Notes: a model not told the origin generated them from the sequence alone. Counted from the stretch's first letter, positions 1,958 to 24,973 are shown. The stretch is 30,853 nucleotides of DNA from a virus (IMGVR_UViG_2619619129_000009), one strand, 5' to 3'. A program made the numbers and translations.

Positions 1958-4405
1958 TTAACCGTCATGCATCATGCTGGCACGGGCGCGCGCACGTTTA
2001 TCCCGCTCGTATTTTTCGAGCGCATCCTGTAACTGGCGGTCAAGCTGTGTCCCCGGCGCAGTACCACCCGTCAGGCTGATGTGATATTCGTTTTTACTCT
2101 GGTCTACATAAGAGCGGCCAGCCGGTGCCGTGACCGGCTGATAAGCCTGATAGCCTGCATAAGAGCTGGTCGCCGGAATATAACTACCGCTGCCATACGT
2201 GGCGGCTTGAGTTCTGGCGGCGGTCTGGTCAAGTGTGTCTGACTCTTTGTTGATAACACCGAGTTTTTCCAGTACCCAGTCAATACCGCTGCGCAGTTTG
2301 TTGAACGCATTAAGCGGCAGCATCAGCGCGTCAGCCAGTGCCTGCCCGAACATGACGCCCGTGTCACGGCAACGGTTCAGGGTGTCCTGGGTGGCTTTGA
2401 CCGGGGCAATCAGGTTTTTAAACCACTGCCACGCGGCCTGTAACTTTTCACCCAGCCAGTCAAACACCGGTTTAAGTGGCGTGAACAGTTCCCCCACCGG
2501 CGCAAATGCCGCTTTCAGCCCTTCAACCACACCGCCAAAGAATGCGCTGACAGGCTCCCAGTATTTACGGATAAGCAACGCCCCGGCGACAATGGCGGCC
2601 ACCACGACCACAACCGGCCAGCTAATCGCCCCGATGGCCGTCATAACAGCACTGCCAACCGTCGTGAAGACTGCCCCCATTGCGCCTGCTGCCGCGATGA
2701 TGGCATTGATGCCAGTGATAACCGGCCAGGCTACAAGACCAATGGCACCGATGATGCCAGTAAGCGCCAGCGCGCCACCGGCAATGATGCCAATGGTTGA
2801 CGCCAGTGATTTGTTTTTCTGTATCCAGCCGTCGAGTTTTAACACATACTTTGTGGCCGTCTGTGTGAGCTTACGCAGTGCGCCTTCCTGCTGGTCAAAC
2901 AGGTCTGTCCCTACCGCCTCATAAGCGGACTGAAACTCCTTAAAGTCACCGCCGAGGTTGTCCTGCATGATATTTACCAGCTCGGCAGTCTTCCCGTCTG
3001 AGGCTTTAAACGCAGCGGTCAGTTTGTCCAGCTTTCCGGTTGAGGCGGCAGTCATCAGCACGGCGGCGGCTGAGCTGGCCTCCTCCCCGAAAATGGTTTT
3101 CATGTATTCAGCCTGCTGGGCAGTACCGAGCCGGTTTTTCTCAAAACTGGCCTGCATTTCTTTCAGAATGGTAAATATTGGTCGGGTATTCCCTTTACTG
3201 TCTGAGGTTTTCACGCCAAGCTCTTTCAGTGCATCCCATGCTTTTCCCGTCGGTGCCTGCAGGCGGCTTAACACGGCACGGCTTCCCGTCCCCGCCATTG
3301 AGCCTGTGATTTTTGCATCATGCAGCGCCCCGACCATTGCGGCGGTTTCTTCAATGCTGACACCGGCATTTTTTGCCACAGGTGCGGCATAGGTCAGCGC
3401 ATCGCTCATGCCGTCAAAATCGGCGGCGGTTTTGTTCATCGTCATGGAGAGAACATCCCCGATATGAGCGACCTTATCGTTTGAAAGCTGAAAGGCGGAT
3501 TTCATCCCCATCAGCAGGGCGGCGTTTTCTTCCATCGTGCGACGGTTTGCCAGCGCCATATTCAGCGTGACCGGCGTTGCCGCCTGAATGGCATCAACAT
3601 CCCCACCCGCTTTCGCGATGATAATCTGTGCACCGGCCGCATCATCCGCCGAGGCGGCGGTATTGTCGCCGAGCTGGCGCGCCTGCTTGCGTAGCGCGGT
3701 CATTTCGGCGGAGTCTTTTGCCACACCGAGCACAGCCTGTAATTCTGAGTTTTTCTGCGCAAACTCATAACCGGGCATCAGCAACTTAACTCCGGCCATC
3801 GTTCCCGCAGCAGCAATCCCCACACCGGCAGCGCCCACTGAGGCCATATTTCCGGCCAGCTCCTTTCCGGCCTGATAACGCTGTTTTACTGCGTTAAGTT
3901 TTGCCTGTTGCGCACTGACACGCGCCAGCGCATCACGCTGACGGTTAAGCTGTGTGGTGGTTTCACTGATACGGTTTTTCAGTCCCTGCTCATCATGTGC
4001 AAGATTGCGGGTATTAATTCCCACAACGGCCAGTTCCCGCTGCTGGCGTTTAACGGAATCCGTCAGGCGGTTATATTTCGCCTGTAAGTCCTCCGCCGCA
4101 CGCTTTGCGGATTCCAGCACTTTCGCCTGAGCACGTGTCGGACGTTCGGTGTTTTTAAACTGTGTGGCAAGGGCTTCGGCCTCCTGCCGTGCCTTTTCAA
4201 GTGCATGACCAGTCACGGCGAGCTGTGCACTGGTCTTGCGAAATCCCTCAATACGGGATGCCTGACCGTTCAGCTCGCGCAGTGATTTTTGTGTTTCCCG
4301 GATATCCCCCGACAGCGATTTGCTCGCTGTGCGGATGGATTTAAACGGGCGGGATGCCTGGTCAACAGCCCTGAGCAATACCTGTAATTTTACATTGTTA
4401 CTCAT
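1958..4405 (-). CDS. T: Tail tape measure protein T, 815 aa
   Basis: 815-aa ORF with coiled-coil N-terminus and Gly/Ala-rich hydrophobic centre typical of tape measure; same length as P2 gpT; follows E/E'. Confidence 0.9.
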   Translation of the reverse strand: MSNNVKLQVLLRAVDQASRPFKSIRTASKSLSGDIRETQKSLRELNGQASRIEGFRKTSAQLAVTGHALEKARQEAEALATQFKNTERPTRAQAKVLESAKRAAEDLQAKYNRLTDSVKRQQRELAVVGINTRNLAHDEQGLKNRISETTTQLNRQRDALARVSAQQAKLNAVKQRYQAGKELAGNMASVGAAGVGIAAAGTMAGVKLLMPGYEFAQKNSELQAVLGVAKDSAEMTALRKQARQLGDNTAASADDAAGAQIIIAKAGGDVDAIQAATPVTLNMALANRRTMEENAALLMGMKSAFQLSNDKVAHIGDVLSMTMNKTAADFDGMSDALTYAAPVAKNAGVSIEETAAMVGALHDAKITGSMAGTGSRAVLSRLQAPTGKAWDALKELGVKTSDSKGNTRPIFTILKEMQASFEKNRLGTAQQAEYMKTIFGEEASSAAAVLMTAASTGKLDKLTAAFKASDGKTAELVNIMQDNLGGDFKEFQSAYEAVGTDLFDQQEGALRKLTQTATKYVLKLDGWIQKNKSLASTIGIIAGGALALTGIIGAIGLVAWPVITGINAIIAAAGAMGAVFTTVGSAVMTAIGAISWPVVVVVAAIVAGALLIRKYWEPVSAFFGGVVEGLKAAFAPVGELFTPLKPVFDWLGEKLQAAWQWFKNLIAPVKATQDTLNRCRDTGVMFGQALADALMLPLNAFNKLRSGIDWVLEKLGVINKESDTLDQTAARTQAATYGSGSYIPATSSYAGYQAYQPVTAPAGRSYVDQSKNEYHISLTGGTAPGTQLDRQLQDALEKYERDKRARARASMMHDG

Positions 4406-4825
4406 TCGTGTTTCCGCTTCGCCGGAGCGCCTTTTCGCGCCATGTGATGAGTTCGGTCAGGCTCATGGGATACAGTTCTGATGGCGGCCAGTGAAATATC
4501 ACTGCCACATCTGCCATCAGGTCATCGACCGACAGATTTTTCGGAAACGTCACTGCACCGAGTTCGGCGACAAAAAACCGACCACCTTACCGGCCAGCGC
4601 CACAAGGTCAGGCAGTTCCAGCGCGGCGACTTCCTGCTCGGTCAGCATCGGTGCCGTCATGCGCGGCAGCACTTTAATCAGTGCATCGACTTCGGAGTTT
4701 GCAACCGCAGCCAGACTGACACCGCGCAGCGTCCCGGCATTGGGTTTCATCAGCGTGACCTGTTCGATAACCTGCTCACCACGTTTGACCGGATTGTCCA
4801 GGGTAATGACATTTTCTTTGTTCAT
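4398..4825 (-). CDS. E': Tail assembly chaperone E+E' produced by programmed -1 ribosomal frameshift, predicted 142 aa
   Basis: Manual translation: slipping -1 at minus-strand GGT TTT TTG (4571-4579) gives an open frame to TAA at 4398-4400, total 142 aa, the length I recall for P2 E+E'; the E' stop overlaps the T start. Confidence 0.75.
4550..4825 (-). CDS. E: Tail assembly chaperone E, 91 aa
   Basis: 91-aa ORF directly upstream of T; contains the TTTTTTG slippery site near its 3' end. Confidence 0.85.
   Translation of the reverse strand: MNKENVITLDNPVKRGEQVIEQVTLMKPNAGTLRGVSLAAVANSEVDALIKVLPRMTAPMLTEQEVAALELPDLVALAGKVVGFLSPNSVQ
4571..4577 (-). other. Slippery heptamer TTTTTTG for the E/E' -1 frameshift
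   Basis: Plus strand reads caaaaaa at 4571-4577, i.e. TTTTTTG on the minus strand, in frame with E codons F-L. Confidence 0.75.
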
Positions 4826-4881
4826 GGTTTTCTCACTTCTGAATCGGGGTTAACCGGTCAGCCAGGCTGACCGGATGAAAA

Positions 4882-5400
4882 TCACAGGCCGATATTGCGG
4901 CGGTGTTGCTCCAGCCGGTCGACGCCGTTCACCTTCTCAATCATGTTGATGGTGTCGATTTCGACCAGCTCCTTACCGTCCATCGTCAGCCGGAAATAGG
5001 TGCAGACCACGGAGATTTTCGACTCGGTGTCTTCTCCCTGTTTACCCTCGCCGGTGTCGATTTCTTTCTGACGTCCACGCATGACCACTTCGACGGCCAC
5101 CGTTTCGCCGGTATCGTCGCGCTGGTAAGAGCCTGCAAAACGAATCGGCACGGCATCCACACCGGTTGCGGCGTAAAGCTCCCAGATAACCGAATCCGGG
5201 AAACCACCGAGCGACCACTCCATTGACAGCGCATCGTCATCAAGGCCGAGATCTACCGGTGCGCTGCCGTTCATCCCCGCACCGCGATAGTTTTCGAGCT
5301 TACGGGTCAGTTTTGGCAGCGTGACGGACTTCGCGACGCCCTGATAGCTGTAGCCGTTCAGAAAGACGTTCATTAACTTGAGTTTGCGCGGCATTGCCAT
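4882..5400 (-). CDS. FII: Tail tube protein FII, 172 aa
   Basis: 172-aa ORF after FI, matching P2 gpFII length and order. Confidence 0.85.
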   Translation of the reverse strand: MAMPRKLKLMNVFLNGYSYQGVAKSVTLPKLTRKLENYRGAGMNGSAPVDLGLDDDALSMEWSLGGFPDSVIWELYAATGVDAVPIRFAGSYQRDDTGETVAVEVVMRGRQKEIDTGEGKQGEDTESKISVVCTYFRLTMDGKELVEIDTINMIEKVNGVDRLEQHRRNIGL

Positions 5401-5412
5401 CGGTCAGGCTCC

Positions 5413-6603
5413 TTAATTGCTGTTAACCGAGGTGACCAGATTTGCCAGGTATTTATCGGTAATACGCTGGCGCAGGGTCAGGTTTTCAAGAGGAGGCACC
5501 GGTGTATAGTCGTAGTCGATATACAGTTTTCCGGCCTTGAGGGTTTCCGCATCGTTGGATTCTTCGCTGAACCAGCAGGTCGCATCCACAATATAGCCGT
5601 TTGTTTTCAGCTCACGGAATTTGGCATTGATGCCGTCAACGATGTCGCGAATCAGCGTTGCAGTGATGGGCTTGTCCACAGCCCACATGTGCGCCTCAGC
5701 CATCGTGTCGGCCAGCACCTGCGCGGTGCGGGTGTAGTTTTCAAAGAGGAACAGCGGGTCATCAGAGCAGGTACGGTTACCCCAGAAGCGGAAACCGTCA
5801 CGGCGAATCAGCGTTGTGACACCTGACTCGTTCAACAGGTCAGCATCAGTGCCGGACTCCTGCAAATCCCAGAATACAGAGGCACTGATGCCGGTAACAC
5901 CGTTTACCCCGACATTGGACAGCGTTTTATGCCAGCCCTGCTCCTGGTCGATTTTAGCGCGCAGACCCAGCGCACGGGCGGTGGCATACGCGGTGGCGGT
6001 GGTACTGGTGACCGTATCCCATGCGAGGAAATCCGGCCAGATGACCATCAGCTCACGCTGGCTGAAATTCTGGCGGTAAGCTTTCACCTCGGAAATGGTT
6101 TTACAGCCCCATGCGCTGATATATCCGAAAGCGCGCAGCTTCTGACAGACTGATGCCAGTGCAACAGCCACCTCTTTGGTATCCAGTCCCGGCACACCAA
6201 GAATACGCGGTTTAACACCGGTTACCGACTCCGCCGCCAGCAGGGCTTTCAGTCCGGTGTACTGACCGTTTTCGTCAGTGGTGCCGATGATATTGGAAAC
6301 GGTCTGCGCGAGTTTCGCTTCCTCGTCGTCGCCGGTGCCGTCTTCCACACGCACGACAACGGTGACCGGTTTTGACTGGTCGGCGATGGCCTGCAACGAT
6401 ACCGCCAGCGTGCCTTTTTTACCGGCCTTTGCAATTGCGCTCTGCACATTGGTAATCAGCACCGGTTTATTGAGGGGGAAGGTTTCCGCATCCGCATCGC
6501 TGGCCGTGCAGACCATGCCGACAATGGCGGTGGATACGGTGGAAATGACGCGGGTGCCGTCGTTAATCTCCAGCACCTGCACGCCGTGATGATAGTCACT
6601 CAT
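5413..6603 (-). CDS. FI: Contractile tail sheath protein FI, 396 aa
   Basis: 396-aa ORF, matching P2 gpFI length and position. Confidence 0.9.
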   Translation of the reverse strand: MSDYHHGVQVLEINDGTRVISTVSTAIVGMVCTASDADAETFPLNKPVLITNVQSAIAKAGKKGTLAVSLQAIADQSKPVTVVVRVEDGTGDDEEAKLAQTVSNIIGTTDENGQYTGLKALLAAESVTGVKPRILGVPGLDTKEVAVALASVCQKLRAFGYISAWGCKTISEVKAYRQNFSQRELMVIWPDFLAWDTVTSTTATAYATARALGLRAKIDQEQGWHKTLSNVGVNGVTGISASVFWDLQESGTDADLLNESGVTTLIRRDGFRFWGNRTCSDDPLFLFENYTRTAQVLADTMAEAHMWAVDKPITATLIRDIVDGINAKFRELKTNGYIVDATCWFSEESNDAETLKAGKLYIDYDYTPVPPLENLTLRQRITDKYLANLVTSVNSN

Positions 6604-6662
6604 CCGTTTAACTCCGTGGTTAATGGGTGAGTGATATTTTCAGTTGTGCCGGAGATGTCAGG

Positions 6663-7262
6663 CTATTTGTCCCGGTTGGCTAAGGGATGACACAATTTAT
6701 TTTTTGTCACGGAGGCGGGGAATTTTTTATAGAGCGTGGACAGGCCAATATCAAAAATCAGTGCCACGCGTTGACGTGATTCCCCTGCAGCCAACAACCG
6801 CCCGGCCTGCTCCCACTCACTCGCGGTGAGTTTCGGACGTCTGCCATCAATACGACCTTTAGCTCTGGCCGCTTCCAGTCCGGCGCGAGTCCGCTCGACA
6901 ATGAGTTCTCGTTCCATTTCAGCCAGGGCACCCATCACATGAAAGAAAAAACGTCCCATCGGCGTGCTGGTATCAATGGCATCCGTCAGGCTGCGAAAAT
7001 TAACGCCGCGTTCGCGCAGTTCCTCAACCAGAATGACCAGATGCCGCATACTACGCCCCAGCCTGTCCAGCTTCCAGACCACCAGAGTGTCACCTGCTGA
7101 TAATGTTCTGAGCAGTTTTTTCAGTCCCGGTCGGTCGGACTTCGTGCCGCTGATTTTATCCTCAAAAATCAGTTCACATCCTGCACACTCCAGCGCATTA
7201 CGCTGCAATTCCGTGTTCTGGTCATTTGTTGACACGCGTACATAGCCAATAAGCATGAGCAT
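6663..7262 (-). CDS. Site-specific DNA invertase, serine recombinase of the Hin/Gin/Cin/Pin family
   Basis: N-terminus LIGYVRVSTNDQN...L.RLGRS is the resolvase/invertase catalytic signature with the active-site Ser in VRVSTNDQ; C-terminal HTH; lies next to an invertible tail-fibre segment. Confidence 0.85.
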   Translation of the reverse strand: MLMLIGYVRVSTNDQNTELQRNALECAGCELIFEDKISGTKSDRPGLKKLLRTLSAGDTLVVWKLDRLGRSMRHLVILVEELRERGVNFRSLTDAIDTSTPMGRFFFHVMGALAEMERELIVERTRAGLEAARAKGRIDGRRPKLTASEWEQAGRLLAAGESRQRVALIFDIGLSTLYKKFPASVTKNKLCHPLANRDK

Positions 7263-7311
7263 CCCCCTGAATAAAAACCGGAGATGATGCCAGTTGCCCG
7301 TTATCTCTGCA

Positions 7312-7337
7312 TTTTCATAAACGTTGGTTTAGGAGAA
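7312..7337. repeat. Left 26-bp inversion crossover site (hix/gix-like)
   Basis: TTTTCATAAACGTTGGTTTAGGAGAA resembles the hix/gix pattern (...AAACC..GGTTT...); matches the reverse complement of the right site at 19 of 26 positions. Confidence 0.6.
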
Positions 7338-7682
7338 GCGGCGAAAAGGGATGTGGGCACAGGAGATAATCAGATACCGGATATGGGAGCATTCGCTTCT
7401 GGTTCGGGATGGTTCAGGCTACCAGGTGGATATATTGTTCAGTTTGGCACTTTTTCAGGAAACACGACCCGCTTTATCAGTGGACACTTCCCTATACCAT
7501 TCCCTAATCAGCCGATGGTTTCAGTCAGTGTTATGTCTGATGCCGTTCAGTCAGACCCGTCGAATCCTGCCCAGCAGGTTTTGTCTGTAAATTTTGAACA
7601 TATCAGTAATTCAGCGTGGCGTGTGGCAACCAGTGATATCTCACAGCAATACAGATTCAGTTATATTTCGATAGGACGGTAG
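7338..7682 (+). CDS. Alternative tail-fibre C-terminal module (Sv'-like), silent in this orientation; expressed only after inversion fuses it to the constant part of H
   Basis: Open frame continuing from the left crossover site; shares the L-G-E codons at the crossover with H; followed by its own assembly chaperone. Confidence 0.55.
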   Translation, partial: AAKRDVGTGDNQIPDMGAFASGSGWFRLPGGYIVQFGTFSGNTTRFISGHFPIPFPNQPMVSVSVMSDAVQSDPSNPAQQVLSVNFEHISNSAWRVATSDISQQYRFSYISIGR

Positions 7683-7684
7683 AA

Positions 7685-8125
7685 ATGCAGAAATATATTT
7701 TCAGTGCCGATAAAAATGCGTTTTTCCCTGTGGAGCTTAAAATCGCTTATCAGGAATCCGGCGAATGGCCCGATGATGGAATCGAAATTGACGACACTGT
7801 TGCCGCCGAATTTATGAAGGAAGCACCAGAAGGAAAATACAGAGGTGTCATCGACGGAATGCCAGCATGGATTGATATTCCACCGCCAACTCATGAGGAA
7901 CAAATTGCCGCAGCCGAACTGGAAAAGCAGCAATTGATTAATCAGGTCAACGAATACATAAACAGTAAGCAATGGCCTGGTAAAGCGGCGATTGGTCGCC
8001 TGAAAGGTGAGGAACTGGCGCAATATAATTTGTGGCTGGATTATCTGGACGCACTGGAGCTGGTCGATACTTCCGGTGCGCCAGATATTGAATGGCCTAC
8101 GCCTCCGGCAGTTCAGGCCAGATGA
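7685..8125 (+). CDS. Tail fibre assembly protein (Tfa/U'-like), partner of the alternative fibre module
   Basis: 146-aa ORF whose C-terminus (WLDYLDALELVDTSGAPDIEWPTPP) parallels the C-terminus of the opposite-strand Tfa (VLDYIDAVTATDTSTAPDVIWPELP). Confidence 0.75.
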   Translation: MQKYIFSADKNAFFPVELKIAYQESGEWPDDGIEIDDTVAAEFMKEAPEGKYRGVIDGMPAWIDIPPPTHEEQIAAAELEKQQLINQVNEYINSKQWPGKAAIGRLKGEELAQYNLWLDYLDALELVDTSGAPDIEWPTPPAVQAR

Positions 8126-8699
8126 CGTCCGGCGCTGTGCTGGTATCTGTTGCCGTCACCGCGTCAATATAATCCAGCACAGCGTTAAGTCGGGTGTTTT
8201 CTGGCTGCGTCAGCTTCCGCCCGGCCTGTAATTTCAGTTGAATCAGACTGATGGAAGCCATTGCAGCATCAATCAGCGACTGGCGCTGTGCTTCTGCCGC
8301 TTCTACTGCGGCGCTATGCTGTGCCTCGGTATCCGTCACCCATTTCTCACCATCCCATTTATCGTATGGCGTTAATGGGGCGATAGTGGTTGTATTTTCA
8401 GGGTAATCACCCGGAACTGTGATTTCTTTGGTATCTCCCGTTTCGGTACTATAGACAACTTCACCGCGATGGTCTGGCACATATTCCCATGAATTTAAAT
8501 CTACAGAGCGACAGATTGCATAACCAGCTTTATGTGTACCTGGTGCATCCAAACAGGAACATGCCGGGATACCGACGCCGACAGCGAGATATTCAGTTGA
8601 TGTAGAAATATATTCCCGCGTTTCGCCATCATAGTTATGTACGATGATTTCCCCATCATTTAAAGCGTAACCGTCTTTTCCCAAAATAGCCTGTTCCAT
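8097..8699 (-). CDS. G: Tail fibre assembly protein G (Tfa), 200 aa
   Basis: Immediately downstream of H on the same strand; conserved Tfa C-terminal motif. Confidence 0.8.
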   Translation of the reverse strand: MEQAILGKDGYALNDGEIIVHNYDGETREYISTSTEYLAVGVGIPACSCLDAPGTHKAGYAICRSVDLNSWEYVPDHRGEVVYSTETGDTKEITVPGDYPENTTTIAPLTPYDKWDGEKWVTDTEAQHSAAVEAAEAQRQSLIDAAMASISLIQLKLQAGRKLTQPENTRLNAVLDYIDAVTATDTSTAPDVIWPELPEA

Positions 8700-9980
8700 T
8701 TATGCAGCCCTCACAATGTAGTTAAACGCAATGTTCCGAGGTCGAGTTTCCCCTGAAACTCTTGGAACCCCACCATTAAAAGCTCTACCAGAAATTTTAT
8801 TGATTAAATCACTATCACCAGTGAACTCCGCGCTTCCATCTGGAATTGCAACATTGCCTCCACCTGCACCAATAAATCGCAGTCTTATAGCTTTATGGCC
8901 GTGGTCTTGCAATGCGTCGCCTTGAACAGACAGAATAGTCCTTCCACTATCCACCCCACGCCCGTCATCCCATCCACGGATAAACTCACCGCGCAAATCT
9001 GGTAATTTTAACTCTGGGTAAGCCTTTGCCAGTTCCGGGTATTCTTCAGCAGAAAAAGCCGCACCATTGCATTTCAACCAGCCTGTTGGCGGAGTGGCTG
9101 AAGGCCACGGAACAGGCACCCCAACAGGTAATGCTGAGCCTTCTCCCAAATCAAGGTATGCGAGAAGACCGGCAACATCCTTTCCACTCAAATGAGTCAG
9201 CGTCTCATCCAGTGGCTGCTTACCTGACAGCGCATTGTTAATGGTGGTGCTGAATTTCGGGTCATTGTTAATGGCCGCGGCAATTTCTTTCAGTGTGTCC
9301 AGCGTGGCTGGCGCGCCGTTAATCAGAGCGGTAATAGCAGCCTGAACAAACTCAGTGGTCGCAATCCGCGTGGTGTTATTTCCTGCGGCAGGCGTCGGCG
9401 CTTTTGGTTCTCCGGTAAATGTCGGATTATGTTTCTGCGCATACTGGGTATGAGGGTCCTGTGCGGCAATGTGTTTGCTCATCTGGTCATCCACATACAG
9501 CCTTAATTCCAGGACTTCATCATCCACGTATTTACGGGTCGCCAGTACCACCGACGGGTCGATTTTCAGCGTGATAGCTTCGGTATTCGTGACAACCAGA
9601 ATCATGCGGATAGTCTGGGTACGACCACTGCCTTCCTGCAACTGCGGTTTGTACGTTTCCGGGCAGTTCGCCACCGCAATGAGTACGCCTTCATCATCAT
9701 AAAGCCCAATCTCACGGATCCAGAATCCGCCCTCGTTCTCAGGGATGATTTGCTCCGCAATAATCTGGCTCTGGTTGTTCGGGTCAACACTCAGAAGATT
9801 CAGCGGCGCGATGCGTTTCTGGTTAATCAGTTTTGTCTGTGCCGGGTCTGGTGTCGGCAAGACACCATTCGCATCACCAACGGCCATTTGCGTCAGATTC
9901 AGCTTACTGCCGAGCATCGTCGCGTTAGCCAGCCGTGCTGCGCCCTGATTAGTCAGAATGGCGTAGTATTTCACTGTCAT
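8700..9980 (-). CDS. H: Tail fibre protein H in its current orientation: constant N-terminal part (about residues 1-280) plus variable C-terminal module, 426 aa
   Basis: Position between I and G; the crossover site lies inside the gene at codons L278-G279-E280. Confidence 0.85.
   Translation of the reverse strand: MTVKYYAILTNQGAARLANATMLGSKLNLTQMAVGDANGVLPTPDPAQTKLINQKRIAPLNLLSVDPNNQSQIIAEQIIPENEGGFWIREIGLYDDEGVLIAVANCPETYKPQLQEGSGRTQTIRMILVVTNTEAITLKIDPSVVLATRKYVDDEVLELRLYVDDQMSKHIAAQDPHTQYAQKHNPTFTGEPKAPTPAAGNNTTRIATTEFVQAAITALINGAPATLDTLKEIAAAINNDPKFSTTINNALSGKQPLDETLTHLSGKDVAGLLAYLDLGEGSALPVGVPVPWPSATPPTGWLKCNGAAFSAEEYPELAKAYPELKLPDLRGEFIRGWDDGRGVDSGRTILSVQGDALQDHGHKAIRLRFIGAGGGNVAIPDGSAEFTGDSDLINKISGRAFNGGVPRVSGETRPRNIAFNYIVRAA
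9141..9166. repeat. Right 26-bp inversion crossover site, inside H
   Basis: TTCTCCCAAATCAAGGTATGCGAGAA; inverted relative to the left site, 19/26 identity; encodes the ...DLGE... junction in H. Confidence 0.6.
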
Positions 9981-10588
9981 GCGTTTACTCTCAGGTTATC
10001 AATTAAATGAATGGCCGAGGCCGGGAAATAATCCCCTCCGACAATAATGGCCTCCGGGGTGTAGGGATAAACCGTCAGGGCGTCGCCGTGATAGCATCCC
10101 GCACCGGCAAAAATGTTGCCGGTTGTACTTAAACTGATAGCCAGTCCCGTCATATGGCGGCTTGCCGGTTTTGCATCAGCAACGAGGCGCTCCAGCTCCT
10201 GATACATTTCCTCGGTAATACCCTGCTCAAGCACGCCAACAACGATACGGAACGTCCCCGGCTCCTCGTTGAGCTGCCACCACTCCCTCACCTCAATCAG
10301 ATAGCCGAGCGGCTCCACCACACGCCGGATTGCGCCTATAGTGCCCTTATGGCAGTGAATGAAATACGCATCGCGGATAACAGCGCGTTTTGTCGCTTCC
10401 GGCCACTTATCATCCCAGCGGTCAACCGAAAATGACCACGCCAGCCACGGCAGCAGATTTGCCGGGCAGGTGTCCGGGTTCCACAGCTCACGAATACTGA
10501 CCGGCGTTTTTTCAATTTCCGCACAGGCTTTTGCAGCGGCGACTTCAAGCGGTGATGAGCCGGTCGGCAGCAGGCGCGAATCACTCAT
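9977..10588 (-). CDS. I: Baseplate assembly protein I (203-aa ORF; true start may be internal)
   Basis: Position between J and H as in P2. Confidence 0.8.
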   Translation of the reverse strand: MSDSRLLPTGSSPLEVAAAKACAEIEKTPVSIRELWNPDTCPANLLPWLAWSFSVDRWDDKWPEATKRAVIRDAYFIHCHKGTIGAIRRVVEPLGYLIEVREWWQLNEEPGTFRIVVGVLEQGITEEMYQELERLVADAKPASRHMTGLAISLSTTGNIFAGAGCYHGDALTVYPYTPEAIIVGGDYFPASAIHLIDNLRVNA

Positions 10589-11489
10589 CCGAGCCTCCGG
10601 TCACGACGCGGTATTCGGTACAGAAAGACGCCTGCGTACTGTTGAGCACGATGTCGGCCAGCGGTGCAGCCAGTTCGACACGCTGCACGCCTTCCACATG
10701 CAAAGCGGCATAAATGGCAGACAGACGGATGTCGCGCCCCAGCCGGTGCTGTGCCGTGATGTACGCTTCCAGTTTTTTCACGGCAGCAGCGCGGATGGGT
10801 TCGCTTTCGGGACCAGGGTAAAGGTAAAGCGTGGCGTTTATCTGGTATTCAACGATGGCGGCAGACTGCACGGTCACGCGGTCGGCCACCGGCCTGACGT
10901 CCTCGCCATTAAGGGCGTTACGCACCACCGCCAGCAGGTCTTCGGATGCGACACCGTTATTTTCACGTGACAGCACAGAGATGGTGACGCAGGCCGGAGA
11001 CGGACTGGTGACAGAGATATCCGCGACACGCCCGTCGGCACTGCGACCATGATACTGATAGGCTCCCACTGACCCGGCGACGCTTAAACCTTCAAACGCC
11101 TGCTGAATACGCAGACGATAATCGGTATCAGATTCCATCACTGCCGGTGTCGGCGGGATGGTCGAATCATCTGCCGGGGTGATAGTCAGACGCGTGGTGT
11201 TGTAATTGGCACCAATCACATCAAGGTCATTACCCGCGGCACAGGCCAGCATCACCGCCCGTGCGGCCTCATTCACACGCTGACGCCAGATAAGCTCACG
11301 ATAAGCGTTTTCCTCCAGCAGTTTGACGAGAGGCTCGGATTCCAGCGTCAGGGTACGGGCGACCGCCTCCTGCTGGTCTTCCGGGTAAAGGGAAATCAGT
11401 GTCGCCTTGCGTTCGGCAAGAATGGTTTCAAAGTCCAGCTCCTCGACCACATCCGGTGCGGGTAGCTGGTTCAGGTCGATAATCGGCAT
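10581..11489 (-). CDS. J: Baseplate assembly protein J, 302 aa
   Basis: 302-aa ORF, matching P2 gpJ length and order. Confidence 0.85.
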   Translation of the reverse strand: MPIIDLNQLPAPDVVEELDFETILAERKATLISLYPEDQQEAVARTLTLESEPLVKLLEENAYRELIWRQRVNEAARAVMLACAAGNDLDVIGANYNTTRLTITPADDSTIPPTPAVMESDTDYRLRIQQAFEGLSVAGSVGAYQYHGRSADGRVADISVTSPSPACVTISVLSRENNGVASEDLLAVVRNALNGEDVRPVADRVTVQSAAIVEYQINATLYLYPGPESEPIRAAAVKKLEAYITAQHRLGRDIRLSAIYAALHVEGVQRVELAAPLADIVLNSTQASFCTEYRVVTGGSDE

Positions 11490-11493
11490 GGTT

Positions 11494-11841
11494 TCAACTC
11501 ACAGGGATGGTTAACGAAAGTGGCTGGCCGGTGTCGTTGTGCTGACCGGTTAACGTGACCGTCATTCGCCCGTCAAAACTGCGCTCAGTGGTGACGGATG
11601 ACAGGGTGACGCGGGGTTCCCATTTCAGCACTGCCATGTAACAGGCGACCTTAATCTGCAACTCAAGCGCCGGAGTCTGCGGCTGGTCAATCATTGACGC
11701 CAGCAACGAGCCGTAATCACGACGCATCACCCGTGAGCCGACCGGTGTGCGCAGGATATCGCCGATACTCTGGCTGATATGCTCAAGGTCAGTGACAGTC
11801 AGGCCATCACTGCGATTCATTCCGAGATAACGCGCAGTCAT
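11494..11841 (-). CDS. W: Baseplate protein W (gp25-like), 115 aa
   Basis: 115-aa ORF, matching P2 gpW length and order. Confidence 0.85.
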   Translation of the reverse strand: MTARYLGMNRSDGLTVTDLEHISQSIGDILRTPVGSRVMRRDYGSLLASMIDQPQTPALELQIKVACYMAVLKWEPRVTLSSVTTERSFDGRMTVTLTGQHNDTGQPLSLTIPVS

Positions 11842-12473
11842 AGAGGTCCCCCTGTTGTGCCGCCACTGTCGCCGGGGTGTTTATGGGTATGCAGTACCTT
11901 ACCGTTTGATGAGAGTTCACCACCGGTATGTTCAATGTTGCCGTGCATCGTTCCGCCCTTCTGCACTTCCAGCGTACCGGTAATCAGCCTGTTGGTGCAG
12001 ACCACCTCCGGTGTGTCCAGGGTGATGCGGGTTGACGCTTTCACCATGACCACCGGCACCGTGGCAGTAACAGAATCAGAAGCCGTCACGCTGGCCGTTT
12101 TAATTCCGCTTACCGTGAGTGCACTGGTTTCGGGTTCATATTCAATCACCGCCCCGTCAGGGAAACGGATATGCAGGGCATCCGCCGACGCAGACGGCGC
12201 GGGGTTATCGCCGGAATAAATCCCCGGCAGAACGAACGCCGTGTCGAGTTCACCGCCCACGGCCAGAATCAGCACCTGTTCCCCCACGGAAGGTGCCCAC
12301 CATGTGCGCGAACGTCCGGCGCGATGTGTCAGCCACTGAAGCCAGTCGGTGCACATGCCGCCGGTCTGCACACGGCAGCGACCGGCGTTAAGGTCGGTTT
12401 CGACGATAATGCCGGTGCGGATCATGTTGCGCAGTGCGCGCGCGAGTTCCTGAATATTTGCGAGAGTGTTCAT
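11838..12473 (-). CDS. V: Baseplate spike protein V, 211 aa
   Basis: 211-aa ORF, matching P2 gpV length and order. Confidence 0.85.
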   Translation of the reverse strand: MNTLANIQELARALRNMIRTGIIVETDLNAGRCRVQTGGMCTDWLQWLTHRAGRSRTWWAPSVGEQVLILAVGGELDTAFVLPGIYSGDNPAPSASADALHIRFPDGAVIEYEPETSALTVSGIKTASVTASDSVTATVPVVMVKASTRITLDTPEVVCTNRLITGTLEVQKGGTMHGNIEHTGGELSSNGKVLHTHKHPGDSGGTTGGPL

Positions 12474-21908: not shown

Positions 21909-22093
21909 CGCCCGCTTCATGGGGCGTTTTTAATGCAGTTGCATGAACACTCCAAGAGCACACCATCGCTAGTGATAACTAACAATAAAAGCGACTTCTG
22001 ACGCATGCAAATCCATGCACATGATGGCATTTTTCATGATCTATGCGGTATGCTATCCGCTTCAATTTTTAACACTTGTTAAGGGAGCTAGAC

Positions 22094-23236
22094 ATGGACA
22101 TTATTGATTTAAAATCTCAACTAGAAAATGAAGATAATGCCAAGAAAAGAGCAGAGTTGCTTGCTCAGCTAGAGGTGATAAAGCAAAACGCTGAAGAGCA
22201 AATTCGTGCTGAGCAAAAGGATGTGGATTTTGAGACCAAAGAATTTACCGTTGAGTTATTAGTTAATAAGTATCATAGCGGATTAGAGGATGATACTAAC
22301 GAACTCTTTGTTCCTGATTATCAAAGGGATTTTGTTTGGAGTGAAAAAAGACAATCAAGATTGATAGAGTCTTTGATTTTGGGTTTTCCTATACCATATA
22401 TATTTACAGCAGATGTTCTCTCCGAAGATCCCGATTTAGATGGGCGAATTGAGATTGTTGATGGCTCACAGCGAGTTAGGACTATACACGCTTTTATCCA
22501 AAATGAATTAGTTTTACAAGATCTGAAATCTTTAGACGCCCTTAATGGTTTCAAATTCCAAGATTTACCATTATCACGTCAACGTCGTTTCATGAGAATT
22601 CCTGTCCGCGTTATAGAATTGAGTTCTAAATGCAATGAAGAAACCCGTAGAGATCTTTTTGAACGTATTAACTCTGGCAGCGATATATTGAAAGATATGG
22701 AAGTCCGTAAAGGATCAGAACTTGGTTCAACAAATTTATATACACAGGTTATTAAGCCATGCTCAACAATACCTAAATTTAAAGAATTAGCCCCTTTATC
22801 TCAGACTAAAGAAAAACGAGATGAACGGTTAGAATTTACATTAAGATTCTTTGCCTACTTAGATAAGTACAAGAACTTTGATCATTCCGTACGGGATTTT
22901 CTAAATGACTATATGTTAGAAAATCGAGATATAGACGAAACTAAACAAAACTCAATGAAACAAGAGTTTGCTAATGTTCTATCTTTTGTTGATAACTATT
23001 TCCCAGCAGGATTCAAGAAAACTATTACTGCAAAATCTACACCTCGAGTTAGATTCGAATCTCTCGCTGTTGGCGCAGCACTTGCATTACGTGAAATCCC
23101 TGACCTTGTTCCCAAGAACTTGGATTGGCTAAGCTCAGAAGAATTCAAACGATTGACCACTTCAGACGGAGCTAATAGTCGCGTGAAGGTAATTGAACGA
23201 ATTGAATATGTTCGGGATAAATTATTAGAGGATTAA
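22094..23236 (+). CDS. DUF262 (ParB-like / GmrSD N-terminal domain) protein, about 380 aa; candidate defence NTPase/nicking component
   Basis: Motifs PDYQRDFVW and IVDGSQRVRT (DGQQR-like) seen in the translation; start chosen at the ATG 8 nt after an AGGGAG Shine-Dalgarno; AT-rich relative to the phage backbone. Confidence 0.7.
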   Translation: MDIIDLKSQLENEDNAKKRAELLAQLEVIKQNAEEQIRAEQKDVDFETKEFTVELLVNKYHSGLEDDTNELFVPDYQRDFVWSEKRQSRLIESLILGFPIPYIFTADVLSEDPDLDGRIEIVDGSQRVRTIHAFIQNELVLQDLKSLDALNGFKFQDLPLSRQRRFMRIPVRVIELSSKCNEETRRDLFERINSGSDILKDMEVRKGSELGSTNLYTQVIKPCSTIPKFKELAPLSQTKEKRDERLEFTLRFFAYLDKYKNFDHSVRDFLNDYMLENRDIDETKQNSMKQEFANVLSFVDNYFPAGFKKTITAKSTPRVRFESLAVGAALALREIPDLVPKNLDWLSSEEFKRLTTSDGANSRVKVIERIEYVRDKLLED

Positions 23237-23237
23237 C

Positions 23238-23918
23238 ATGGATCGTTTTCGTGAGGATTTTGACGAAAGGTCAGGAGAGATCTTGGCCTATTTAGATCTT
23301 TTGAAATTTATTGAGTATGCCGGTGCAGAACTGATATCATCTGATGATAAAGAACATAAGTTCTCCATTACTGCTCAATCACGAAAAACTCTAAAGGGGG
23401 CAGTATATATTCTATTATATAACCTCATTGAATCAACAATGAGAGAAGCTATCTGCCTTATTCATGAGACTATTTATGATAGAAACGTAGAATTTGACAA
23501 ACTCAGGAAAAATATCAGGTCAGAAATATTAAAAAGATTAAAAAATGAATCTGTAAATATTGAAAGTTTAGTTAACCGTCTTACTAAAGGTATATCTTGC
23601 GGTATATCTTATGGCACTTTCAACAAAAAGAAAATATTCTCAGGAAATATTGATAGAGAGGAAATCAAAGAAAAATCGAAAATATATGGTTTTTCAACAT
23701 ATTCTGATTACACTCACACTAAACATGGTGAAAAATTAGCCACTGTCAAACAACATCGTAATGATTTATCTCATGGCAATGTATCATTTGCTGAGATTGG
23801 AAAAAATGTTTCATATCAGGACTTAGAGAATATTTCATTAGAAGTAATCGCCTATCTTGATGCAATCGCGAATAATATAGAGCACTATATAAATAATAAT
23901 GAATATTTAGAACAATAG
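23238..23918 (+). CDS. HEPN-like putative nuclease, 226 aa, translationally coupled to the DUF262 gene
   Basis: C-terminal HRNDLSHG contains an R-x4-H HEPN-type motif; start codon 1 nt after the upstream stop with a GAGGA RBS; family assignment is from recalled pattern, not a search. Confidence 0.5.
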   Translation: MDRFREDFDERSGEILAYLDLLKFIEYAGAELISSDDKEHKFSITAQSRKTLKGAVYILLYNLIESTMREAICLIHETIYDRNVEFDKLRKNIRSEILKRLKNESVNIESLVNRLTKGISCGISYGTFNKKKIFSGNIDREEIKEKSKIYGFSTYSDYTHTKHGEKLATVKQHRNDLSHGNVSFAEIGKNVSYQDLENISLEVIAYLDAIANNIEHYINNNEYLEQ

Positions 23919-23924
23919 TAATAA

Positions 23925-23947
23925 GGCCTGCAAAGCAGGCCATTTTA
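23925..23947. terminator. Bidirectional rho-independent terminator between the convergent HEPN and methyltransferase genes
   Basis: Perfect stem ggcctgc / gcaggcc with loop aaa, flanked by T-rich runs on both strands. Confidence 0.65.
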
Positions 23948-24973
23948 TCATTCTAAATGGTTCTTGATTGATTGCCCAATTGCTTTTCCTAGTTCCACAG
24001 GAACAGCATTACCTATCATTTTCCCAATACTTCTTATAACAAACTTGTCTTTGTCTTCTACAAAGATATAATCCATCGGAAAAGTTTGCAATAAAGCAGC
24101 CTCTCTAAGAGAAATCGCTCTATGCTGTTCTGGATGTCCAAAACGTCCATTTCCGAAACCATAACAAAGAGTTGTAATTGTTGGACTCGGCTTATCCCAA
24201 GACATGCGCCCATATACACTAGCATATCCTTTACCGCTAGATTTCATATGACAAGCAGCAATCAGCTCCTTCGGCCAGTCCTTCCATGTACCACCAGGAA
24301 CAGAGTGTATAATTCTTTTTTTATTAATCGGATTTAATTTACTGGCTCTATGTAATATATCATTTGGATCTGTTTGGCCATCTTCTAACGGAGGAAGATT
24401 TCCTATTGCATCTCTAACTGTTTTCAAAATAACATCGTCACGTTTTACTAACTCAATCGCCCCCAATTTTGAAGCCAACAATACATGACGGGAACGGTTT
24501 TGTGGGATTCCATATTCGACACAATCAACCTTCGACGCCCAAACATAATAGCCCAACTTTAACAATGAATTATAAAAATCATTATAAACTTTATGTTTAG
24601 TTACATCAGGAACGTTCTCCATTGTTACGATTTCTGGAGATACTTCGCGAATTAAACGTTCGAACTCATAAAGAAGAGGCCATTTTTTATCATCAGCCTT
24701 ATCTTTTCCTTGAGTATATTTTGAAAAAGGTTGGCAAGGTGCGCATCCTGCCAATACTTTTACAGACGCATCACCATAAAGCCTCAGCAGTTCCTCTTTT
24801 GTTACTTTAGCGATATCTTGCTCAATAAACTTAGATTTATTGTTTCTTTCATAGGGAAACCGACATTCCCCCTCAAGGTCTATGCCTGCAACGACATCAA
24901 GCCCCGCAAGCTGTAAACCATGAGTTAATCCGCCAGCACCACAAAAAAGGTCTATCACCTTTACAGTCATCAT
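23948..24973 (-). CDS. DNA (cytosine-5)-methyltransferase, 341 aa
   Basis: Motif I DLFCGAGG, motif IV GCAPCQPFS (catalytic Pro-Cys), motif VI ENV (TMENVPD) seen in the translation. Confidence 0.85.
   Translation of the reverse strand: MMTVKVIDLFCGAGGLTHGLQLAGLDVVAGIDLEGECRFPYERNNKSKFIEQDIAKVTKEELLRLYGDASVKVLAGCAPCQPFSKYTQGKDKADDKKWPLLYEFERLIREVSPEIVTMENVPDVTKHKVYNDFYNSLLKLGYYVWASKVDCVEYGIPQNRSRHVLLASKLGAIELVKRDDVILKTVRDAIGNLPPLEDGQTDPNDILHRASKLNPINKKRIIHSVPGGTWKDWPKELIAACHMKSSGKGYASVYGRMSWDKPSPTITTLCYGFGNGRFGHPEQHRAISLREAALLQTFPMDYIFVEDKDKFVIRSIGKMIGNAVPVELGKAIGQSIKNHLE

Follow-up and report, generated by a model that had tools for sequence, protein, structure and literature searches.

The region at positions 6663-9980 of a viral DNA of 30,853 nucleotides (IMGVR_UViG_2619619129_000009; the whole stretch is called the window) raises the question of whether the tail fibre of a prophage can be switched by DNA inversion, and which parts would carry out the switch. 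An earlier note on this DNA had described a serine invertase gene of the Hin/Gin family beside a mirror-image block of fibre genes, and had proposed that a host-range switch like the Mu G segment or the P1 C segment replaces the Z/fun region of a P2-type tail. The reading reached here, with an estimated probability of about 0.85, is that the region switches the tail fibre of a P2-like Escherichia coli prophage by site-specific inversion of the Pin/Gin type.

The region was composed of a fibre gene, H, two genes for Tfa chaperones, a second fibre C-terminus on the opposite strand and an invertase gene, arranged as follows.

8700-9980, minus strand: fibre gene H, with an N-terminal Phage_tail_fib domain and a Collar domain (residues 287-334)
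9167-9980, minus strand: constant N-terminal part of H, about 272 residues (Phage_tail_fib, E 1.4e-62)
8700-9140, minus strand: expressed variable C-terminus of H, collar type (Collar, PF07484)
8097-8699, minus strand: Tfa for the expressed module, TfaE-like, 200 residues (Caudo_TAP, E 2.5e-31)
7685-8125, plus strand: Tfa for the silent module, TfaP-like, 146 residues (Caudo_TAP, E 1.2e-34)
7338-7682, plus strand: silent alternative fibre C-terminus (Gp53-like_C, PF21882, E 1.9e-9), in the frame of the open reading frame (ORF) 7284-7682
6663-7262, minus strand: ORF of the Pin/Gin-type DNA invertase; the gene is 6663-7256, with 197 residues from the second ATG (7256), the probable start

The constant N-terminus of H lay outside the predicted invertible segment, and two opposed C-termini lay inside it, each with its own Tfa, which is the layout of the Mu G type. 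All of the blocks that had been described on the two strands were found with matching domains. The first 14 codons of ORF 7284-7682 were located outside the fibre. In the annotation of public records the gp53-like module appears as a free-standing ORF of 132 residues; this 'gp53-like domain-containing protein' is a silent fibre cassette and no free-standing gene.

Two 26-bp crossover sites bounded the segment.

7312-7337, plus strand: crossover site A, invertase-proximal, TTTTCATAAACG TT GGTTTAGGAGAA
9141-9166, minus strand: crossover site B, inside H, in the fibre sense TTCTCGCATACC TT GATTTGGGAGAA
7325-9153: invertible segment between the centres of sites A and B, about 1.83 kb

A loose consensus of invertase sites matched exactly two places in 30.8 kb, sites A and B, compared with 0.03 matches expected from shuffled sequences. 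Site A was identical to pix of e14, the site beside pinE, at 25 of 26 positions, and sites A and B were identical to each other at 19 of 26. The central dinucleotides were TT and AA on the plus strand, so that the sites are inverted and fit the 2-bp staggered exchange of serine invertases. Both sites were obtained by reading of the sequence and by the consensus search; a generic search for inverted repeats did not pick them up, because only 19 of 26 positions are identical and the exact runs are short. A third crossover site, which would make the locus a shufflon as in another P2 prophage of enteropathogenic E. coli (EPEC), was considered and rejected, since just two sites lay within 3 mismatches of the consensus. 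In the separate contig IMGVR_UViG_3300014527_000031, two sites of the invertase-proximal type with the same outer half were located in inverted orientation at 47-72 and 1838-1863, a layout that may be multi-site and shufflon-like, as reported for the other EPEC P2 prophage.

When the segment 7324-9154 was inverted in silico, residues 1-272 of H were joined to ...GLGEAAKRDVGTGDNQ..., which gave an uninterrupted fibre of 394 residues, and the Tfa of 146 residues began 2 nt past its stop codon. The codon phase was identical at sites A and B, and the fibre was in frame both ways, with 426 residues in the present orientation and 394 residues in the inverted one. The two states were defined by their junction sequences, TTTTCATAAACGTTGGTTTAGGAGAAGC and TTCTCGCATACCTTGATTTGGGAGAAGG in the window state and TTTTCATAAACGTTGATTTGGGAGAAGG and TTCTCGCATACCTTGGTTTAGGAGAAGC in the inverted state. 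The anatomy of the switch and the compatibility of its reading frames were shown here, and the continuous fibre that had been anticipated after inversion was obtained.

The inverted orientation, for which the earlier note had advised a search, exists in nature. The loci of E. coli E-93 (China) and BS74R-D (Switzerland) were 97% identical to the window. When they were compared with each other, they were identical over 6457 bp apart from the stretch 2240-4096 between the predicted sites, where the sequence of one locus was exactly the reverse complement of the other (0 mismatches). Natural inversion has thus taken place at exactly these sites in near-identical prophages, and the fused fibre of 394 residues (a coding sequence of 1185 nt) is annotated in E-93. 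Among 5426 complete E. coli genomes, 29 matched the window form and 25 matched the form inverted in silico (coverage >=80%). With an 80-bp query across the collar-module junction, also at >=80% coverage, the expressed state was found in 160 of the complete genomes and the silent state in 250. In IMG/VR, the gp53-like half-site occurred in both joins, with the outer half of the invertase side in 3 contigs and with that of the H side in 4. The same cassette was present in dozens of complete E. coli genomes. The same layout with an annotated DNA invertase was also found in the P2-like phages MET_P1_103_31, O157:H43 T22 prophage, 500465-2, pro483 and Klebsiella KP12.

These orientations bear on a reading of the region as a static mosaic, in which a fossil recombination with an e14-like element would have left an invertase and sites that function in no member, and plus-strand genes that are dead cargo. 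The annotation of the plus-strand module as a separate ORF would fit such a relic, but every ORF was intact. The divergence of sites A and B would fit it as well, although serine invertases require matching central dinucleotides and not overall site identity. The exact reverse complement between otherwise identical loci, the frequency of both states across genomes and the experimental inversion of the EPEC homologue (PMC4272514) argue strongly for the opposite, and a static mosaic was considered hardly credible.

The invertase was composed of an N-terminal catalytic Resolvase domain (PF00239, E 3e-52) and a C-terminal HTH_7 domain (PF02796, E 5.6e-13), and it could be aligned over its full length with the crystal structures of Mu Gin, 3UJ3 and 4M6F (E 1e-93, residues 1-182). 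The sequence identity was 87% to e14 PinE and 79% to Mu Gin, in agreement with the family that had been named for it. The catalytic Ser9 was present in the YVRVST motif, which was intact within IGYVRVSTNDQ. Residues K47, R/K48 and R/K51 of Hin, together with Q151, R154 and L155 in helix 1 of its DNA-binding domain, are conserved only in the invertases that depend on Fis and the enhancer (PMC3798978). With the Hin numbering transferred by hand, the window invertase had the basic helix-B residues K46, K47 and R50 (LKKLLR) and retained the Q/R/L patch of helix 1 (EQAGRLL). The domains, the catalytic serine, the helix-B and helix-1 residues and the crossover sites were all as in the Fis/enhancer-dependent group (Hin/Gin/Cin/Pin).

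DNA homology to P2 restarted at window 6683 (P2 17572), inside the annotated activator-binding site of P2 (17555-17583) at the late promoter pF. The stop codon of the invertase was located 20 bp within this pF-homologous DNA, which explains why its C-terminal tail is 13 residues longer than that of PinE. The invertase gene was directly upstream of FI on the same strand, and no terminator was predicted between them. A scan of 6500-8800 for promoters and terminators gave no excess over shuffled sequences and supported neither an invertase promoter nor a terminator in the segment.

A candidate for the recombinational enhancer was located in the invertase gene itself.

7172-7235, within the 5' end of the invertase gene: putative recombinational enhancer, with two Fis-like 15-mers at 7221-7235 and 7172-7186

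The two 15-mers, GTGTCAACAAATGAC centred at 7228 and GTGCAGGATGTGAAC centred at 7179, had centres 48-49 bp apart, and the centre of the first was ~97 bp from the centre of site A. Mu gin and e14 pinE had such 15-mers at the corresponding codons, and in gin the second was identical. The enhancer of Hin has two Fis sites and lies about 100 bp from hixL (PMC3798978). The region 7172-7235 may therefore act as a Fis-dependent enhancer with the geometry seen in Hin, and the switch would then depend on Fis. When the codons of the window invertase, gin and pin were compared, identity was highest in the first 15 codons (0.64 compared with a mean of 0.32), and two later bins reached 0.56 and 0.58; this profile leaves an embedded element unproven, because three sequences are too few.

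From these parts, the following course of switching is proposed. Invertase dimers would bind the two 26-bp sites, one just upstream of the invertase gene and one inside H, and the sites would be synapsed on the Fis-bound enhancer that is predicted within the 5' coding region of the invertase. Cleavage at the central TT and rotation of the half-sites would then invert the 1.83-kb segment. In the present state, the H N-terminus of 272 residues is followed by the collar-domain tip and then by the TfaE-like chaperone. In the inverted state, the same N-terminus would continue in frame into the gp53-like tip, to a fibre of 394 residues, followed by the chaperone that belongs to that tip. A population of lysogens would in this way release virions with two receptor specificities, as host-range bet-hedging of the kind known from Mu G, P1 C and e14 P.

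The two tips may differ in receptor specificity; they were of different domain families, Collar and Gp53-like_C. A blastp comparison of the two tips with each other gave no match, and the two Tfa proteins were 35% identical in their C-terminal parts only. The expressed tip resembled a chain of a 'short tail fiber' (PDB code 9cuy) and T4 gp37 (PDB code 2xgf), whereas a PDB sequence search with the gp53-like module gave no match. The constant part of H was 36% identical to residues 27-364 of P2 H, and the similarity stopped at the crossover site. The convergent tfa genes overlapped by 29 bp at their 3' ends (8097-8125), and an imperfect inverted repeat (8133-8184) was located right beside the overlap.

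A role in the virion is the direct reading for H, which belongs to the late V-W-J-I-H operon, and the prophage looks complete. The main selective role could instead lie in the lysogen, where inversion would alter the fibre and chaperone fragments that are expressed and these would block the adsorption of other phages. In PMC12529663 and bioRxiv 10.1101/2025.03.28.646004, such a role is reported for PinQ/PinR in cryptic prophages, and the cassette is related to e14 and to the P segments of cryptic prophages. Against the completeness of the prophage and the position of H, a main role in the lysogen was considered very unlikely. If the region is an inversion switch for the virion fibre, this prophage should be credited with two receptor-binding tips in annotation and host-range prediction.

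Several findings weigh against an active switch in this copy. The evidence for flipping came from relatives, and activity of the window copy would follow by analogy; in addition, the putative enhancer was drawn from conservation, and the difference in receptors is a prediction. The invertase carried the substitution G137D (codon at 6846-6848; GRIGGR to GRIDGR), which was its sole residue difference from the invertase of E-93 and BS74R-D. Residue 137 was Gly in Gin, PinE, four other relatives and all 118 of the 118 alignable cluster representatives, and none of the 389 complete E. coli genomes with this stretch of the gene (of 5426) had the D137 allele. The position was two residues ahead of Gly-Arg, and the Gly-Arg of Hin enters the minor groove of DNA. 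Furthermore, position 16 of site B (window 9151) was A for G in the fibre sense, three bases from the exchange centre. On the plus strand this base was T compared with C in the relatives, and Gly of H was changed to Asp (LAYLGLGEG to LAYLDLGEG). The site B variant was found in neither orientation in the 5426 complete E. coli genomes or in IMG/VR, where scans for junctions with this variant also found nothing. The gp53-like module was silent in all six of the D137 loci with a visible neighbourhood, a small sample of few lineages that is partly clonal.

These findings would fit a switch that is present but attenuated or phase-locked, in which G137D lowers or abolishes the activity of the invertase, site B is drifting and only the collar-type fibre is expressed. 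The invariance of Gly at position 137 in relatives, the absence of the allele from complete genomes, the occurrence of the site B variant in no other sequence searched and the single state of the six loci point in this direction, and a single residue separates the allele from the one that flips in E-93 and BS74R-D. Nevertheless, 12 draft or metagenome contigs encoded the exact D137 protein, and their segments were of at least three different kinds; the protein has therefore persisted and spread. The equivalent residue of gamma-delta resolvase was Phe in the alignment, so that position 137 is not conserved across the wider family. The EPEC site that inverts has four consensus mismatches in its outer half, and single site changes are therefore tolerated (PMC4272514). 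The six loci in one orientation are weak evidence, because active loci can be 90-93% forward. The two changes would fit an attenuated switch but are a long way from proving it, and a crippled switch was regarded as rather unlikely. If it were correct, this hypomorphic or phase-locked copy would be a naturally occurring allele with which to map what the hinge just ahead of the minor-groove GR motif does in DNA invertases. The rare G137D allele and the altered site are of modest interest only, and could represent a natural loss-of-switching variant.

In three loci with the D137 invertase, another segment was present, with an H of 420 residues lacking the collar domain, an ORF of 77 residues and a gp53-like ORF of 169 residues. 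Homology between these loci and the window was lost precisely where the two sites have their inner edges, at 9140 and 7340, and the sites therefore also act as boundaries of module exchange.

By its gene content, the window represents an entire P2-like (Peduoviridae) prophage of E. coli. Deposited Peduovirus genomes were 97% identical over 74-87% of its first 25 kb, and genes for integrase, gpA, portal, terminase, capsid, lysis and tail were all present; gpA and the integrase were located at the far end. A Logan contig from SRR1186671 was 100% identical over 9.6 kb (window 2163-11756), and the exact sequences of the invertase, H and the gp53-like ORF were all present in NCBI. The region was flanked by the following tail genes.

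11838-12473, minus strand: V, late tail gene
11494-11841, minus strand: W, late tail gene
10581-11489, minus strand: J, late tail gene
9977-10588, minus strand: I, late tail gene
5413-6603: FI (sheath), after the invertase gene and followed by the rest of the F operon

The tail was of the P2 type, as had been claimed, with 95% identity to P2 (NC_001895) in V, W, J and most of I, and 98% in pF/FI. The invertase block had G/Tfa on one side and FI on the other, which is the place of fun(Z) in P2. In the same interval, the P2 reference contains H, G, a terminator, fun(Z) on the opposite strand, the pF promoter and FI. The invertase therefore sits where the earlier note had placed it, but the replacement is larger than Z/fun. 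DNA homology to P2 ended at window 10155, inside gene I, and started again only at 6683, and an entire block has therefore been exchanged, which extends from the 3' end of I to the pF promoter and includes H, G and fun(Z).

The window also contained the P2 old/tin hotspot at 22076-24973, from the portal gene to gpA, and the match of related phages to the window ended at about 21950-22022. The hotspot carried a DUF262/GmrSD_N protein of 386 residues, for which the best PADLOC matches were NsnA (E 2e-54) and PD-T4-2_A (E 5e-35), a HEPN_MAE_28990 protein of 226 residues and a C5 cytosine methyltransferase of 341 residues on the minus strand. This cargo is probably an anti-phage defence of a known candidate type.

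When the cassette was compared with known systems, the gene order of the tail was shared with P2, whereas P2 lacks an invertase, has one fibre tip and one chaperone, and carries fun(Z) on the other strand. P2 H contained a relic gix-like 26-mer, TTATCGAATATCTCGGTTTACAGGAA (NC_001895 13857-13882), identical to Mu gix at 23 of 26 positions, and the similarity to the window H ended there. This suggests that the fibre tip of P2 was derived from an invertible cassette. Invertases at the Z/fun hotspot of P2 have already been reported (bioRxiv 10.1101/2024.10.15.618418).

The Mu G segment (S-U / S'-U') shared the logic and the gene order, with the invertase downstream on the strand of the fibre gene. 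Gin was 79% identical, the sites were likewise 26 bp long, and the Fis-like 15-mers were at matching codon positions. In contrast, the tips were unrelated, with similarity (32%) just in the C-terminus of Tfa, the G segment is 3 kb (PMC3575834) compared with 1.8 kb in the window, and the sites of the window were of the pix type and not of the gix type.

The architecture ascribed to Mu G and P1 C was thus present, but the cassette is related more closely to the e14 Pin/P-segment than to Mu or P1. Besides PinE (87%) and site A (25 of 26 compared with pix), TfaE was 87%, the StfE fragment (tip) 58% and TfaP 56% identical. The order of constant part, tip, tfa, tfa', tip' and invertase was the same, and the convergent overlap of tfaP and tfaE was also exactly 29 bp. 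The e14 element of E. coli K-12 is defective and lambdoid, in contrast to the complete P2-like prophage of the window. The constant N-terminus in the window was P2-H-like and not StfP-like, and the second tip was gp53-like and not the StfP tip. The C-terminal tail of the invertase, with 13 additional residues compared with PinE, was partly encoded by P2 pF promoter DNA.

Fels-2, presumably a P2-like prophage, has in Salmonella LT2 the DNA invertase Fin (STM2702) adjoining alternative fibre C-termini. A protein named 'serine-type DNA invertase Fin' was 84% identical to the window invertase. As described, the Fels-2 locus differs from the window in its host and its fibre modules. The tail fibre beside fin was inverted between LT2 and LT7 (Zaworski et al. 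2021, PMC7953296).

In EPEC, two invertible loci in P2-like prophages have been read as alternative fibre C-termini (Goldberg et al. 2014, PMC4272514). The locus of strain E2348/69 (NC_011601 2977580-2979467), which spans 1,888 bp, showed phase-variable inversion, with the two orientations coexisting in a mixed population; the forward share among sequenced colonies was 93 ± 4% (PMC4272514 Table S1). It contained the same cassette as the window, with the collar tip, a 603-nt tfa, a 441-nt tfa, the gp53-like tip and the invertase, followed by the sheath gene. The segment was 88% identical to the window in nucleotides and the invertase 82% in amino acids, whereas the EPEC locus is a remnant with an integrase fragment in place of the H N-terminus and a more degenerate distal site.

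Fibre switching has been documented experimentally in EPEC and comparatively in Fels-2, and the window adds nothing conceptually new to it. An invertase-driven fibre switch in P2-like prophages is common and already published (PMC4272514, PMC7953296, bioRxiv 10.1101/2024.10.15.618418).

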